Notes under the pieces: generated by a model
Told to the model about the DNA's origin: nothing
Databases searched by the model: none
What the model saw: only the letters and a program-made list of their open reading frames with translations
Position numbers and translations under genes: made by a program
Assembly: GCF_018977255.1 (NCBI RefSeq)
Contig: NW_024704743.1
Span: 13,828,001 to 13,892,000 of the forward strand
Reading direction: 5' to 3'
Length of the DNA stretch: 64,000 bases
Origin: Callorhinchus milii
Lineage: Eukaryota
Part shown: in pieces, positions 5,208 through 36,782 of the stretch
How positions within the stretch are numbered: the stretch's first letter is position 1
How the letters are laid out: each line of letters starts with the position of its first letter

Positions 5208-5358
5208 ACTCCAGTGAAGCAGAACTGAAAATTGGCTCCAGGGTCAAAATTGACATTGTTGACAAAGATAACCAAATGGCTTCAATCCATTTGGTTATCT
5301 TTGTCAACAATGTCAATTTTGACCCTGGAGCCAATTTTCAGTTCTGTTTCACTGGAGT
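5208..5358. repeat. 72-bp near-perfect inverted repeat with a 7-nt loop
   Basis: 5208-5279 pairs with 5287-5358; one mismatch, which is a G-T wobble on the + strand. Confidence 0.95.
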
Positions 5359-9714: not shown

Positions 9715-9990
9715 TCATCACTGCTGTGCGCAATTGGCTGCCGCGTTTCGCCCACAAAATATACAGTCAATTCAGCTTTTTACAGTACAATCTGTGAAGC
9801 GCTTTGAGACGTCTCGAAGACATGATAAGGAGTTATATAAATGCAAGGATTATTATTATTATCAGATTTAATTTGCTCAATAGTTAATAATCCTTGCATT
9901 TGATATAGCGCCTTATCAAGCCATCAAGACGTCTCAAAAGTTCACAAGTTTTTACGGTGATGTGTAATGACTTTGTATTTGCAGGGGATC
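9715..9990. mobile_element. Two SINE 3' fragments, tail-to-tail (+ ~9715-9860; - ~9885-9990)
   Basis: ctgtgcgcaattggctgccgcg...aaatgcaaggattattattatt, then the reverse complement of the tail. Confidence 0.8.
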
Positions 9991-21187: not shown

Positions 21188-22324
21188 ATTTATTTCTGTA
21201 GATCTTAACAGATTGAGCATCAGCTACTTTTGTCTGTGGCACGATAGTGCCATGAGTTAGCATAGCAGAAATGGCACCATAAACTTGACTGGCACAGGAT
21301 TGCGCAGAGGTGTTTATCCCGATTTCAGTTCAGAAATAAATATCTGTGAGAATATACAATGAGTATAGTGCTTATAATGACCCAGAGATGAGTGTTATCA
21401 ACTGAGCTTAGAACAACCAAGTGAGAATAGTGAAAACAGTGCTTTTGATGACCCAGAGCTCAGTGTTACTAACTGGGCGGAGTTGATACCTAGTGATTTA
21501 TCAGAGGCAAACATTTGGTAAGGATGGCTGGTAGAAGAGTGGGAAGCTAAGGAATAGCTCAGCCCTACTGGCCATCATTAGAAACTTCAGTGCTGACCAA
21601 AGTATAGGCAGATGCTGTTATAGCAGTACAACACTGGCTCAGTTATAACATGGTAACACTGACTAACACTAGACAGACTTTTTCTGCACCCGGTACATAA
21701 GAGTGGGGATTGTGGCAACCCCAGAGGTGAGTGAGGGTAGCCACACTATAACACACATAATCCATTATATCAATTAATCCATTTTAAGGACCCACAACTA
21801 CTGCTTTATAACAGGGATGGATGTTGTATCTCTAGCTTATACAGAGATTCAGGGGTTGCTGAAACTATACGTGAAATAATGTATCAATCTTAAAAAGACA
21901 GTCAGTGCCATTCCCTGGAGTTGTGCCTCCGATGTAGAGAAGCTTAAATTAAATGTCAGTCATTTCTTGTGCCAATGATGAAGCTGGAACATCTGGTACA
22001 ATTGGAAATCTCTTTTCGTCCATTTTATAACTCAATACAATCTCACTAATCCTCTCTGCACTTCCCAGTCAATTGCAGCAGATACCTTGCTTCATCAGAC
22101 CTCTCAGACTTCTAAAGTATGAGCATGTTACTTCAAAATATAGTGAGAATGCTCCCAAAAACAGAGGTTGCAGAGATTTCTGTGCAAAAAAATCTGTGCA
22201 AAAGAATAGAAATTTAGGAACAGGAGTAGGCCATTCATCCTGTTAACTGGTGAGAACAACCTGAACTCCAGAATGAACCCTGGAGTTGGATGTGAAGAAA
22301 TTAGTTGGCAGGTATTACGAAAGG

Positions 22325-22562
22325 CAAAGTACTGCACATACTGGAAATCTGCCATAAACACAGAAGTCCCTGGGAACACGCAGCAGGTCAGGCAGCATCC
22401 ATGGAGAGAGGAAAATTAGTTCATGTTTCATCAGGACTCCTCTCTGACCTTTTGTCAGTTCTGACGAAAGGCCATAGACCTGAAACATTAAATCATTTTC
22501 CGCTCTCCATCGATGTTGCCTGACCTGCTGCATGTTCCCAGCAACTTCTGTGTGTACGGCAG
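22325..22562. mobile_element. Penelope-type palindromic element with decayed hammerhead motif
   Basis: 82-nt arms 22349-22430 and 22481-22562 (~11 mismatches by hand). The centre contains agtt-CTGACGA-aagg..cct-GAAAC. Confidence 0.7.
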
Positions 22563-22754
22563 TTATTACAGTTTTGTTGCTCTAGTAGAAATCCTCATAG
22601 ACTTGCACAGTCCTCTTTCGTTGTGCTTGTGTAGGACTAAATATCCACCTGTACTTCAAACAAACTTTAACACAAGCTGGAGAGTATAAACAGCAAAGCC
22701 TACTCTCTAATAGAAAGCAACTACATAGATGTTTCAGTCTACAACCCAACATGT

Positions 22755-23080
22755 GGAGTCCTGTAGCTCAGTGGTTAGAGCACTCGCTTTGCAAGCGAGA
22801 GACCTGAGTTCAATTCCAGGCAGGTCAGGGCGAAACCTTGGGCAAGTTTCCTTACTCCACACAGAGCCTAATAATAATCCCTCCAAAACCAAAAACAATA
22901 ATAAATTGGTCATTTTCAATCTACGACTGTTTGTGGGACATTGCTGTGCGCAATTGGCTGCCGCGTTCGCCCACAAATATATAGTCAATTCACTTTACAG
23001 TATATTCTGTGAAGCGCTTTGGGACGTCCTCCCGACATGAAAAGCGCTACATCAAATGCAAGGATTATTATTATTATTAT
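22755..23080 (+). mobile_element. Young tRNA(Ala)-derived SINE, short form
   Basis: A box tagctcagtgg, anticodon arm ctcgc-tttgcaa-gcgag, B box gagttcaattcc, Deu-like block, L2-type stem-loop and (tta)n tail. Nearly identical to 56273-56584. Confidence 0.92.
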
Positions 23081-23202
23081 GGAGTTAAAGGTAAAAATAA
23101 GCCAATTTCTGCAAATTAACAGCTCTCCCTTCAAGTCCAAATTTTGAAGACAATCAGCAAGAGATGCCACAGAATCAAACACTTGGCTTCCGTCTCACAT
23201 AC

Positions 23203-23293
23203 CTGGATAAGCATTTCCATCCATGTCCACTCCTCCTGAGATTGATTGGCCAAACATTCGCAACAATGGACTGATCATCTTCCCAGACAGCCT
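23203..23293 (-). CDS. ITGA9: ITGA9 exon ~12 (91 nt): RLSGKMISPLLRMFGQSISGGVDMDGNAYP
   Basis: Read manually. Acceptor cttccag|AGG and donor CCAG|gtatgt. Confidence 0.95.
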
Positions 23294-23798
23294 CTGGAAG
23301 AGTCAAGGTGCAAGAGAGATTAGACAAACAAAAAGATAAATCTTCATTCAGTCAGCAGAGTCCTCTGGATCAAAGATCTGTGGATAACAAATCTGTTGAT
23401 ATCATCCAACATATCCAATACCTGGAGTGGGTACAAGTTACAAGGCATGGACTCTATCTATGGTAGTAAGAGCATAATACATTTCTAGATAAGATATTGA
23501 ATAGCTCAGTTATGAAACAGCTCAATTATTAAGTCCTTTCCTAATGTTGATTGTTCACAGTGCTGAACCTATAGCTCGGTATAGTAACGCATTGATATTG
23601 TCATGATGCCACTCTGGGCTTTAAATGGGCCACGTTGGATATTCCAAGCAACAATAAAACATACAGTAGGGTCTAATTTTCAGCATTTCCTAATAGGATA
23701 TGTTTATTTAGCACATTTCTAAGGCATTCTTCAGCACATTGGATAATTATATAATGTATTTTGTATTAAGAAATATTGCATGTTAGACCCCAGGGACT

Positions 23799-23952
23799 AT
23801 CTGAAACAAAAGCAGAAGTCGCTGGGAACGCTCAACAGGTCATCGACCCAAAACGTTGACCACTTTCCTTTCTCTATAGATGCTGCCTGACCTGCTGAGT
23901 GTTCCCAGCGACTTCTGTTTTTGTTTCAGATTTCCCGCATCTGCAGTATTTT
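23799..23952. mobile_element. Second Penelope-type palindrome, internally deleted
   Basis: Arms 23799-23842 and 23888-23931; same family sequence gatgctgcctgacctgctgag. Confidence 0.7.
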
Positions 23953-25074
23953 TCACCCAGTGACTATCTGTTTGGCAATGAGTGCAATTCATCTCTCTTT
24001 GGGTTGGAAAAGTTTTCAAACCCAGAAACCAGCATCATCCCCATTGCTCCTTTGAGCATGGAAAAATAAAAAAATCCTTGCATTTGCGTTAGCACTAATC
24101 TGCGTATGAGTGCTGTGGCAGGGATCAATTTATTTCGCTGGTAAATAAGGCAGTGGAAACGCAATCCATTCATTTGAGGTTAAGATGGATGCCAATAAAT
24201 TCTTTCACTTCCTAGCACCTCCCTATTTCTCCGACCTCCTCCTACCCGCCCTACCTCTGCAACTATTGGTAAGCAAGCTTTCTGATTCTACACTCCTAAC
24301 CTATGGAACTCCCTCTGGAACTCCCTTTCTCGCGCTCAATCTATATCTGTCTTCAAGTCCTACCTTAAACCCTATGAATTTGTCACGCCTATGAGCACCT
24401 CTCTTCCCCCATCCCCTCTGCTCGGTGTCCTTCACTGCTACTGTAAAGCCCTCCGAGACTACATGACCAGCACTACATTACTGCAAATTGTTGTTGTTGA
24501 CAGTGTGCTACTACAAAGGAGCATGTTTAATCGGTACAGGTTAATCAGTTCTTTATTCCTCCTCATTGAATTTAGAAGTAATATTTTTACACAACAGTTA
24601 CTCAAATGTATGAATAGATTGGATGATCACAAATGTTTTTTGAAGCAAAGTCCATAACAAAAGTTGAAGAGGAATTGGGATAAACCTTTGAGGAAAAAGA
24701 AGGCAGTTTCTCCCAGTGACCTGGCCAGAGAAGATCAGGGATTAAATCTGGGACCTTTCCTGTGTGTTTGCCACACATCACAAGCTATATACTTACTGAA
24801 TTGACAGGGGAGTCTGGCACTGATCCTGACCAGAAGGGATATGGCAATCTTGTTTACATGTTGCTGTGTGATGACAAATGGTAAAAGCAATAGTTTTGAG
24901 CAGTACTGTGCTGGAAAGCCCTGATTGATTCAGTCATTTAGAGCATAACAGCACCAGTAATTCAAACACAATAAACTACTTTGTTTCTCTCAATCCAGAA
25001 AGTGTCTGTGCTTTTGTTTTATATTCCTCAATAACAGCATTAGATAAACTCTGGATTCCTCCATACACACACAC

Positions 25075-34267: not shown

Positions 34268-34405
34268 AACAAAACACAAAATACTGCAGATGCTGGAAAC
34301 CTGAAACAAAAACAGATAGAGCTGGGAAAACTCAGCAGGTCAGGCAGCATCAGAGGAGAAAGGAAAGTGAGTCAAAGTTTTGGGTCCACAACCCTTCTGA
34401 CGATT
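34268..34405. mobile_element. Single arm of a Penelope-type palindrome
   Basis: actgcagatgctggaaacctgaaacaaaaacaga...ctcagcaggtcaggcagcatc; ends where an L2 begins. Confidence 0.65.
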
Positions 34406-35493: not shown

Positions 35494-36782
35494 CTGAAAG
35501 CAGGAAATAAGATGTGCTAAGAAGATGGTGAACTCTGATTCACACGTCTAGTGCTATGTGTTGCCCTGCTCATTTCAGGTTCTCTGCTAGCTGTTGCTCT
35601 GCTCATTTTGGTTTTGGGACCCGCTCTCTGCTCAGGAAGACTCCAGACTAATGTTCGCCATGAAAGTCACAACATTAACTGGTTGTATTGAAGAAGGCGG
35701 TTCCCATGACCAATGGATTTGAGCTAGTCAAGCTATGGTGCTGATATACTATGAAGAATTTCTTAAACTTTACTGCTCCTTTTGAGTAAACCGAATTTCA
35801 CATTTGCTGTGGCCAACAAAAGGGTCATCTAATTGCAGCGATTCTCCACTGATGTACCAAGCTTACTTATATCAGCTACAGCTGACGATTCAGCTTCTAT
35901 TTATTTGTGAGATTGGGAGAGAGGCCTACATTCAAGACAACAACAGCAACTTGCATTTATACAGCGCCCTTCATGCAAGGTTGCGTCCCAGAGCGCTGTA
36001 AGATTAATTTACACTCAAAACCATATTGATGGACCACAAAATCTACTAACTTTTATAATCATCATCTTGGGACGTTCTCCGATGTGAAAGGTGCTATACA
36101 AATGTAATTTGTTGTTGTTGTTTTATGCATTCTATGAATTTTATGATGAAGGCAACAGTCTTGCTGGAGCACAGGCTTCGCAGTTCTTGGCCAGGCAGCC
36201 ATTGTCAATGTACAGCTTTGATAACCAATGCTGCCCAAATAAATCAACTTTACAGTATAACACAGTCAATCCTCATAGAATATTCTTGGAAAATAAGGGT
36301 AAAATTTATGGTATTACTTCATGTGTTCCTTAACTTAATTAACAGCAACAACAAACAACAAATTGCATTTATTTAGCACGTTCCACGTTGAGAGGACGTC
36401 AGTTAAGACACTAGAGAACAATTGAGGCTGTTCATGAGTATTTCTTTAACATTAACACAAAAGGAAACAGACACAAGTGATACAAAATCTGTCAAACAGC
36501 ATCTTCCACTCACTGTAATTCAATATTGCAGACTCAAATATTTTCTAGGTCTAAAAAGGGAGTTAAAAAAACTTGACAGAATTAGGATTTCAGGGTGTTT
36601 CTTCAATTCTCGAAAATCACAGCAGTATAATGGTGTGGTCTGAAAGTTTCTATGTTTTATTTGCGCCTCTGATCACACAGAACTGCCATTTTTGTGCAGC
36701 TAAAAATAGGACACCTGCTTAACTCAACTCAGCAGGACTCGATGCTGCCTCTGAGTTGATAAGAAGTATGCGGGCCCATGAC

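Follow-up and report, generated by a model that had tools for sequence, protein, structure and literature searches.

The window analysed here, a 64-kb stretch of Callorhinchus milii DNA, contains exons of the integrin alpha-9 gene ITGA9, which lies on the minus strand: a tblastn search with two integrin alpha-9 proteins placed ITGA9 exons from 57550 down to 9446 (−), and one exon in the window is 98–100% identical to Callorhinchus milii integrin alpha-9. Self-repeated sequence makes up 32% of the window. It holds a CR1/L2-type LINE fragment whose endonuclease and RT frames are still open (42324–44039), numerous decayed L2-like pieces elsewhere, and a tRNA-Ala-headed SINE with a LINE-like 3′ end (22757–23083), parts of which recur about 25 times; four further tRNA-like heads lie at 39526, 46356, 48109 and 56277. 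In an ITGA9 intron bounded by exons at 23293–about 23200 and 15436–15236 sits a sequence (copy A) that an initial annotation had described as a palindromic Penelope-type element with a decayed minimal hammerhead ribozyme on both strands. Copy A, which carries such a decayed hammerhead, is likely a fold-back stub derived from a Penelope-type repeat that is very abundant in cartilaginous fish.

The inverted arms of copy A were located correctly: they measure 82 nt each (22349–22430 and 22481–22562) and are 87% complementary, with 11 mismatches. RNA folding of 22340–22570 (+) gave −132.2 kcal/mol (z −15.8, with none of 200 shuffles as good), and the ITGA9-sense (−) fold of copy A gave −154.1 kcal/mol (z −16.2). 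The element limits originally drawn (22349..22562) were too narrow, as the insertion spans 239 bp (22319–22557) and consists of a tail, a left copy, a 3-nt overlap and a right copy; both the 30-bp one-sided tail and the 12-bp target-site duplication (TSD) had fallen outside. The two halves point outward, with their truncated 5′ ends meeting centrally, that is, head-to-head (Table 1). The arms had been thought to enclose the hammerhead; the motif is indeed central, but its last 13 nt belong to the right arm. The description as ORF-less, while true of the 239-bp insertion, is what is expected of any heavily 5′-truncated retroelement copy.

A wide (25x30) search for TSDs reached the score of copy A at 9 of 400 random positions and that of a second copy (B, see below) at 2 of 400; restricted to the element ends, the chance probabilities are about 1.4e-4 (A) and 3e-6 (B). 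The right TSD copy of A overlaps the tail-less arm end by 5 nt.

Contigs of four public sequencing runs (X1, X4, X5 and X15, the latter from a second organism) were aligned to copy A at 80% identity. One X4 contig matches 22240–22383, covering the left part of copy A, with no differences, and a contig of X5, which comes from another study, spans the centre (22418–22547) with two. Judged from the left junction and the centre—no contig extends over the right junction—copy A is, as far as tested, no assembly artefact. Depth was absent from 22570–22660 in every run, an observation that carries no weight either way. Its left junction is also present in one X15 contig, implying that copy A was inserted before the two organisms split.

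Table 1 Features of copy A and of the related copies in the window.
Feature	Positions	Strand	Remarks
Left TSD copy	22307..22318	+	11/12 against 22558–22569; ends where family coverage begins
One-sided 30-bp tail (3′ extension of left copy)	22319..22348	−	Homologous to tails of copies B and C; right copy without tail
Left tailed repeat-end copy, 5′-truncated at first hammerhead bases	22349..22458	−	ITGA9-sense; from arm alignment
Dead (predicted) hammerhead relic	22418..22458	−	From sequence against family letters; missed by motif descriptor
Head-to-head junction, 3-nt overlap CAG common to both halves	22456..22458	.	From sequence
Right tail-less repeat-end copy	22456..22562	+	Final 5 nt overlap right TSD copy
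Minimal type-I hammerhead motif, core letters intact	22457..22493	+	Putative cut after 22489
Right TSD copy	22558..22569	+	11/12 against left copy
Copy B	23789..23970	.	Mirror layout of A; same family
Copy C	34270..34393	−	Single tailed half, second subfamily; no partner

The window holds three copies of the repeat, A, B (23799–23955 without its TSD) and C. Copy B joins a 44-nt tail-less left arm to a tailed right arm that starts inside stem II of the hammerhead, with 5–6 nt of microhomology at the junction; its 15-bp TSD (23789–23803/23956–23970, 14 of 15 matching) overlaps the tail-less end by 5 nt, just as in copy A. Copy C ends in the hammerhead region, adjoining a decayed L2-like LINE, and the search that yielded TSDs for A and B found none for it. 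The 30-bp tail sits at the left end of A and the right end of B and is also present in C; a hairpin within it did not rise above shuffled sequences. All four long halves in the window end in or at the hammerhead. The tail-less end (23915–23931 in B, and the matching stretch in other copies) carries a pyrimidine run followed by CAG and resembles a 3′ splice site. A CAG also precedes the hammerhead at its 5′ edge, at the place where the Drosophila virilis Penelope intron ends (PMC4209133).

Beyond the window, the repeat matched 4574 (X1), 5090 (X4), 7338 (X15) and 1601 (X5) contigs. Extrapolating from three copies per 64 kb gives about 42,000 per 0.9 Gb (95% range 8,700–123,000); the depth ratios of 45,000–78,000 are not copy numbers. 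The repeat also turns up within gene models from Scyliorhinus, Heterodontus, Rhincodon and Callorhinchus, and therefore spans sharks and chimaeras. These models, either annotation errors or cases of exonisation, include an RNF14 isoform, a PIKfyve-like protein, MICAL1 and a hypothetical protein. Searches of published papers listed no description of this family in chimaera or shark, and four 16-nt forms of the motif had no match in literature text or in a supplement to the Craig paper (PMC8557442). The family may already be catalogued in Repbase or Dfam, and the supplements of a recent study on retrozymes (10.64898/2026.07.22.740005) may list it as well.

The initial annotation had taken the family as a whole to be palindromic. 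A master element of fixed palindromic form, spreading as a unit with a ribozyme on each strand, would fit two of the three window copies, which are palindromic, and the many contigs with inversion joints. Yet the junctions vary: the fold-back point falls at the 5′ edge of the hammerhead (its first bases) in A and inside stem II in B, and there is none in C. Among the contigs, the 15 of 71 joints shown comprise ten skips, all different, four strand changes and one step back; each occurs in one or two contigs per run, and some may be alignment effects. The consensus also continues past the centre of A, reading GTCAG-AA beyond 22430 in all three runs listed where A reads GTCAG-TT. The tail occurs on either side, and the inverted copy lacks the 5′ strand of stem I. 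With fold-back points that vary among copies, only a single half in C and other copies extending beyond the centre of A, the family is not a fixed palindrome, and we regard a palindromic master as very unlikely. Of the claim that both strands carry a hammerhead, the relic on the minus strand stands, but it is merely the inverted partner copy, cut before the 5′ strand of stem I. The family has a pair of preferred 3′ ends: 24 of the 32 long contig pieces listed start at 22317–22322, while many contigs end just left of 22349–22360, and tail depth amounts to 45–62% of that in the next bin.

We then turn to the hammerhead itself. On the plus strand the motif reads as originally quoted (22457–22493), and so does the minus relic, with its core box at 22458–22452 and GAAAC at 22429–22425. 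Stem II had been given as AGG/CCT; these pairs are present, with the correction that they are joined by a C-A mismatch and a C-G pair and preceded by an extra unpaired A, a typical trait of minimal hammerhead ribozymes (min-HHRs). A relaxed min-HHR descriptor matched once in the window, at the plus motif of A, and left the minus relic unmatched; in 100 Markov resamples it matched on average 0.63 times per 64 kb with any stem I and 0.08 times with a stem I of at least 2 bp. Rfam hammerhead covariance models gave no match up to E 5–10. Rfam matches to miRNA precursors were far below gathering scores, reflect the hairpin and were discarded.

The hammerhead motif alone is thus weak evidence against chance; strong evidence comes from the family majority letters, which restore the damaged positions. 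The loose-end consensus past 22430 shows the core box intact and stem II paired throughout (103, 87 and 30 contigs in X1, X4 and X5), and the one behind 22414 reads GAAAC-GTT (96, 110, 164 and 46 contigs in X1, X4, X15 and X5). Together with copy B, which retains CGTT at the cleavage region, these consensuses bear out the CpG decay that had been proposed for both quoted sites. At 22424, 27–52% of the depth has the CpG letter although matching favours the query letter, and the letters of A at 22422 and 22492 are replaced in 88–96% of the matched depth. The resulting majority motif has a 4-bp stem I and a 5-bp stem II (within the min-HHR ranges of 2–5 bp and 3–8 bp, respectively); it further includes the additional unpaired A, a palindromic C-G pair at 15.2/16.2 and GUU as cleavage triplet. 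The core of CUGANGA plus unpaired base followed by GAAA is present on the plus strand of A and in the family consensus, not on the minus strand.

Two subfamilies, seen in the loose ends and in copy C, differ by a compensatory A-U/G-C change at the base of stem II. Stem covariation had been proposed as a check; this change between the subfamilies is one instance, and on only the four window halves the covariation signal is not above shuffles (241 of 500 as high). In the right arm, G at 22487 accounts for only 24–37% of the depth and most keeps A, and at 22472 C is kept, with no other letter listed at 10% in X1, X4 and X15. A subfamily with imperfect pairs at 22472/22487 may exist, and such variants may be common; contigs sort to the arm they resemble, which biases this comparison and inflates their share.

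MITE-type elements have symmetric terminal inverted repeats, a fixed interior and a short TSD of fixed length. A MITE-like non-autonomous DNA transposon with long terminal inverted repeats, in which the hammerhead is coincidental, would account for a short, palindromic, TSD-flanked repeat of high copy number, and the motif by itself exceeds chance only slightly, as the resamples above indicate. We give this reading next to no credence: the ends are asymmetric and tailed, single halves occur, the centres vary, and the TSDs, 12 and 15 bp long, show microhomology at the termini. In addition, the ribozyme is complete in the family majority, where a compensatory change is seen.

As for activity, both motifs of copy A are predicted to be dead, in agreement with the earlier view that this copy is inactive, on account of their lesions and their predicted sequestration. 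The plus motif is damaged at 22472 (stem II), at 22487 (the 15.2-16.2 pair, by CpG decay) and at 22492 (stem I), leaving one mismatch in each stem, C-A at 15.2/16.2 and the cleavage triplet AUU. Because it appears locked in the long hairpin, it is predicted not to act: the pairing probability of its helices I and II is 0.0 in the whole hairpin and at most 0.05 in isolation, a forced hammerhead fold costs +4.8 kcal/mol, and its GAAAC-A stretch pairs with the opposite arm at 0.90–1.0 in the whole hairpin. In the minus relic, G8 and G16.2 have both become A, 8 nt are inserted in stem II and position 17 is a G; the relic also lacks the 5′ strand of stem I, and its triplet is AUG. An AUG triplet is not cleavable under the NUH rule. 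With G8, the cleavage triplet and stem I lost, the minus motif is likewise predicted to be dead. The 15.2/16.2 palindromic pair is missing from both arms (C-A), and the relaxed descriptor found no intact same-strand hammerhead partner in the 64-kb window. In the Anolis Poseidon element (PAc), changes of G8 abolish cleavage (PMC11167929).

Co-option of copy A in ITGA9, as an active ribozyme or a regulatory hairpin, could be argued from its presence at the same place in the second organism (one contig) and from the strong predicted sense duplex of −154.1 kcal/mol. The sense motif, however, bears five lesions, the antisense motif is sequestered, and the 13% arm divergence resembles neutral decay, so we hold such a function to be extremely unlikely. 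The present effect of copy A is likely passive only, namely a predicted 82-bp duplex in the ITGA9 pre-mRNA that would make a putative ADAR substrate; ADAR editing is known for frog palindromic repeats and for a lizard Penelope (PMC5625713).

The initial assignment to a Penelope-type minimal hammerhead is supported by comparison with known systems, and membership of the repeat among Penelope-like elements (PLEs) is likely, based on its architecture and ribozyme. Insertions of endonuclease-bearing PLEs have been described with an inverted, 5′-truncated copy beside the 5′ end and a 30–40 bp tail that is often one-sided (PMC8557442), and PLE insertions with an inverted pLTR overlapping the direct one, a 31-bp tail and TSDs of 8–10 bp, mostly head-to-head (PMC3846280; also PMC8969392). 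Copy A shares with the endonuclease-bearing units the inverted head-to-head 5′-truncated copy, the one-sided 30-bp tail, the TSD and the junction overlap. Unlike them, it retains only the last 105–140 nt per side, with no ORF between, and the TSDs of 12 and 15 bp seen here exceed the 8–10 bp given for rotifer PLEs (PMC3846280).

Metazoan min-HHRs are reported to number thousands per genome, to be mostly solitary, with some opposite-strand pairs 100–700 bp apart, and not to cut as monomers (PMC4209133); dimer cleavage (Lunse 2017) is cited in a review (PMC6765202). Compared with the metazoan PLE min-HHR consensus in fig. S3 of PMC4209133, the family shares CUGANGA plus the unpaired base, stem II, GAAA, the C-G palindrome replacing helix III, an NUH site and a short stem I. 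The rows of that figure considered here include no cartilaginous fish; in A the two motifs abut, and linkage to an ORF is not part of the likeness. One subfamily has A-U rather than G-C at 10.1-11.1, as do a few of the S3 rows (PMC4209133). Non-LTR retrozymes (10.64898/2026.07.22.740005) are similar in being ORF-less, PLE-related and equipped with a type-I hammerhead, and they were reported in the one chondrichthyan sampled. Retrozymes form head-to-tail tandem arrays, whereas the copies here are dispersed and either head-to-head or single, with no tandem array found at A or B.

No RT or GIY-YIG ORF was found linked to the repeat: the proteins matched by the arm peptide were free of such domains (0 of 5 and 0 of 8 proteins; Pfam), and DNA pattern scans for longer copies gave 0 matches in viral contigs, metagenome contigs and prokaryote genomes, collections that contain little vertebrate DNA. 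An ATG-led frame of 24 codons in the arms was considered as the start of a PLE ORF but is not supported as such, its matches being shark gene models through the repeat or unrelated repeats.

The reading we favour, and consider probable, is that copy A consists of two head-to-head truncated copies of one 105–140-base repeat end, with one tail and a TSD; it is likely a dead Penelope-like insertion, its hairpin having probably arisen in the course of integration, and neither motif is predicted to be capable of cleavage. Insertions of this kind are already known from Penelope-like elements, and copy A is a further example. The ancestral RNA carried a complete min-HHR near its 3′ end, as the family sequence shows, with the cleavage site 73 nt from the short end and about 103 nt from the tail end; going by the literature, the ribozyme may have been active as a dimer or with an element protein. 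A GIY-YIG endonuclease would have made staggered nicks 12 bp apart, the spacing of the TSD, and reverse transcription of the element RNA would then have been primed by both target 3′ ends, one priming at the start of the tail and the other 30 nt inward of that point.

Such two-site priming is suggested by the two family ends together with the in-vitro start sites and both-strand extension of Poseidon (PMC11167929). According to that work, the purified Poseidon protein nicks and extends both target strands from two neighbouring internal start sites, between which the tail lies; the Poseidon hammerhead depends on the protein, and insertion in vitro does not need the hammerhead (PMC11167929). In PAc, reverse transcription starts at two sites about 111–118 nt inside an ORF whose start lies at stem II (PMC11167929). 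The family resembles PAc in that its two ends are separated by about the length of a tail and lie some 95 and 125 nt downstream of stem II. It differs from PAc in that the arm peptide is not supported as the start of an ORF; the PAc data, moreover, are from in-vitro assays.

Both cDNAs would have stopped early, at or in the hammerhead, and may have been joined through a few bases of microhomology; overlaps of 3 nt in A and 5–6 nt in B are observed. After insertion the arms would have diverged, so that 11 of 82 sites now differ, and decay would have set in at the motifs. That two cDNAs were involved is favoured by copy B, as its 44-nt arm cannot template the long arm, with later deletion as the alternative explanation for the short arm.

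Part of copy A calls for more than this. Both arms carry the same two bases (22352–22353/22558–22559), which are absent from 92–99% of the matched family depth and are the first bases of the TSD, and they also share non-majority letters at 22359, 22380 and 22424. Two independent cDNAs alone do not account for TSD bases common to both arms. One possibility is uptake of target sequence by the tailed arm of A. The observation would also fit a source subfamily that is rare, templating of the second arm on DNA, or conversion at a later time. Along these lines, the second arm might have been copied from the first at the DNA level, by snap-back of the first cDNA on the short native CAG-NN-CTG palindrome that lies at the 5′ edge of the hammerhead, or by later inverted duplication or conversion between the arms. 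The shared letters just listed, two of them TSD bases, would follow, the minus strand of A at its centre reads like a snap-back product, and self-priming at junction palindromes has been proposed (PMC3846280). On the other hand, the shared letters also follow from a single source RNA of a minor subfamily, snap-back alone cannot add a tail, and the short arm of B could not have served as template unless the middle was later deleted. Copying at the DNA level hence strikes us as unlikely.

The insertion chemistry outlined above could also have acted on a different template, namely a dedicated short non-autonomous RNA, SINE- or retrozyme-like, that starts near the 5′ edge of the hammerhead. We treat this variant of the favoured explanation as possible, though with clearly less conviction. 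It would fit the observation that all four long window halves stop in or at the hammerhead, as well as the behaviour of the consensus past 22430, which agrees among X1, X4 and X5 only through the 5′ strand of stem I and then diverges. Eight of the ten skip joints shown re-enter at 22452–22477, and non-autonomous PLE derivatives have been described (PMC8557442; 10.64898/2026.07.22.740005). An identical pattern would nevertheless result if the RT stalled where the motif is structured, or if several subfamilies differed in their upstream sequence; 5′ truncation is known for most PLE insertions (10.64898/2026.07.22.740005), and longer copies are invisible to a query without upstream sequence. More tentatively still, and at a level of confidence we would call low, cartilaginous fish may contain stubs by the tens of thousands, each derived from a dedicated short hammerhead RNA and primed from both target strands, with the tailed arm sometimes taking up target-site bases.

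As a single locus, copy A matters little, being a dead repeat in an intron. The family, by contrast, constitutes a compact data set on how Penelope-like elements form inverted ends and tails, with some 250 bp of each stub recording both target junctions, both RT starts and the join at the centre. If the reading of a short RNA with twin priming were true, the stubs would be a natural record of how PLE integration finishes, a step not yet seen in vivo. The family also cautions against reading such hairpins as bipolar viroid-like ribozyme elements, since it is simply the inverted copy that gives rise to the second motif.

Other inverted and direct repeats occur in the same stretch of DNA. A near-perfect palindrome of 151 bp, with 75-nt arms that agree at 97%, lies at 5208–5358 just after an L2-like LINE; it is unrelated to the Penelope-type family and is single in the window. 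Head-to-head or tail-to-tail SINE/LINE 3′ ends form short inverted repeats at 9803–9938, 35934–36124 and 36084–36386, and two 48-nt direct repeats, 71 bp apart and 79% alike, are found at 21360–21478.
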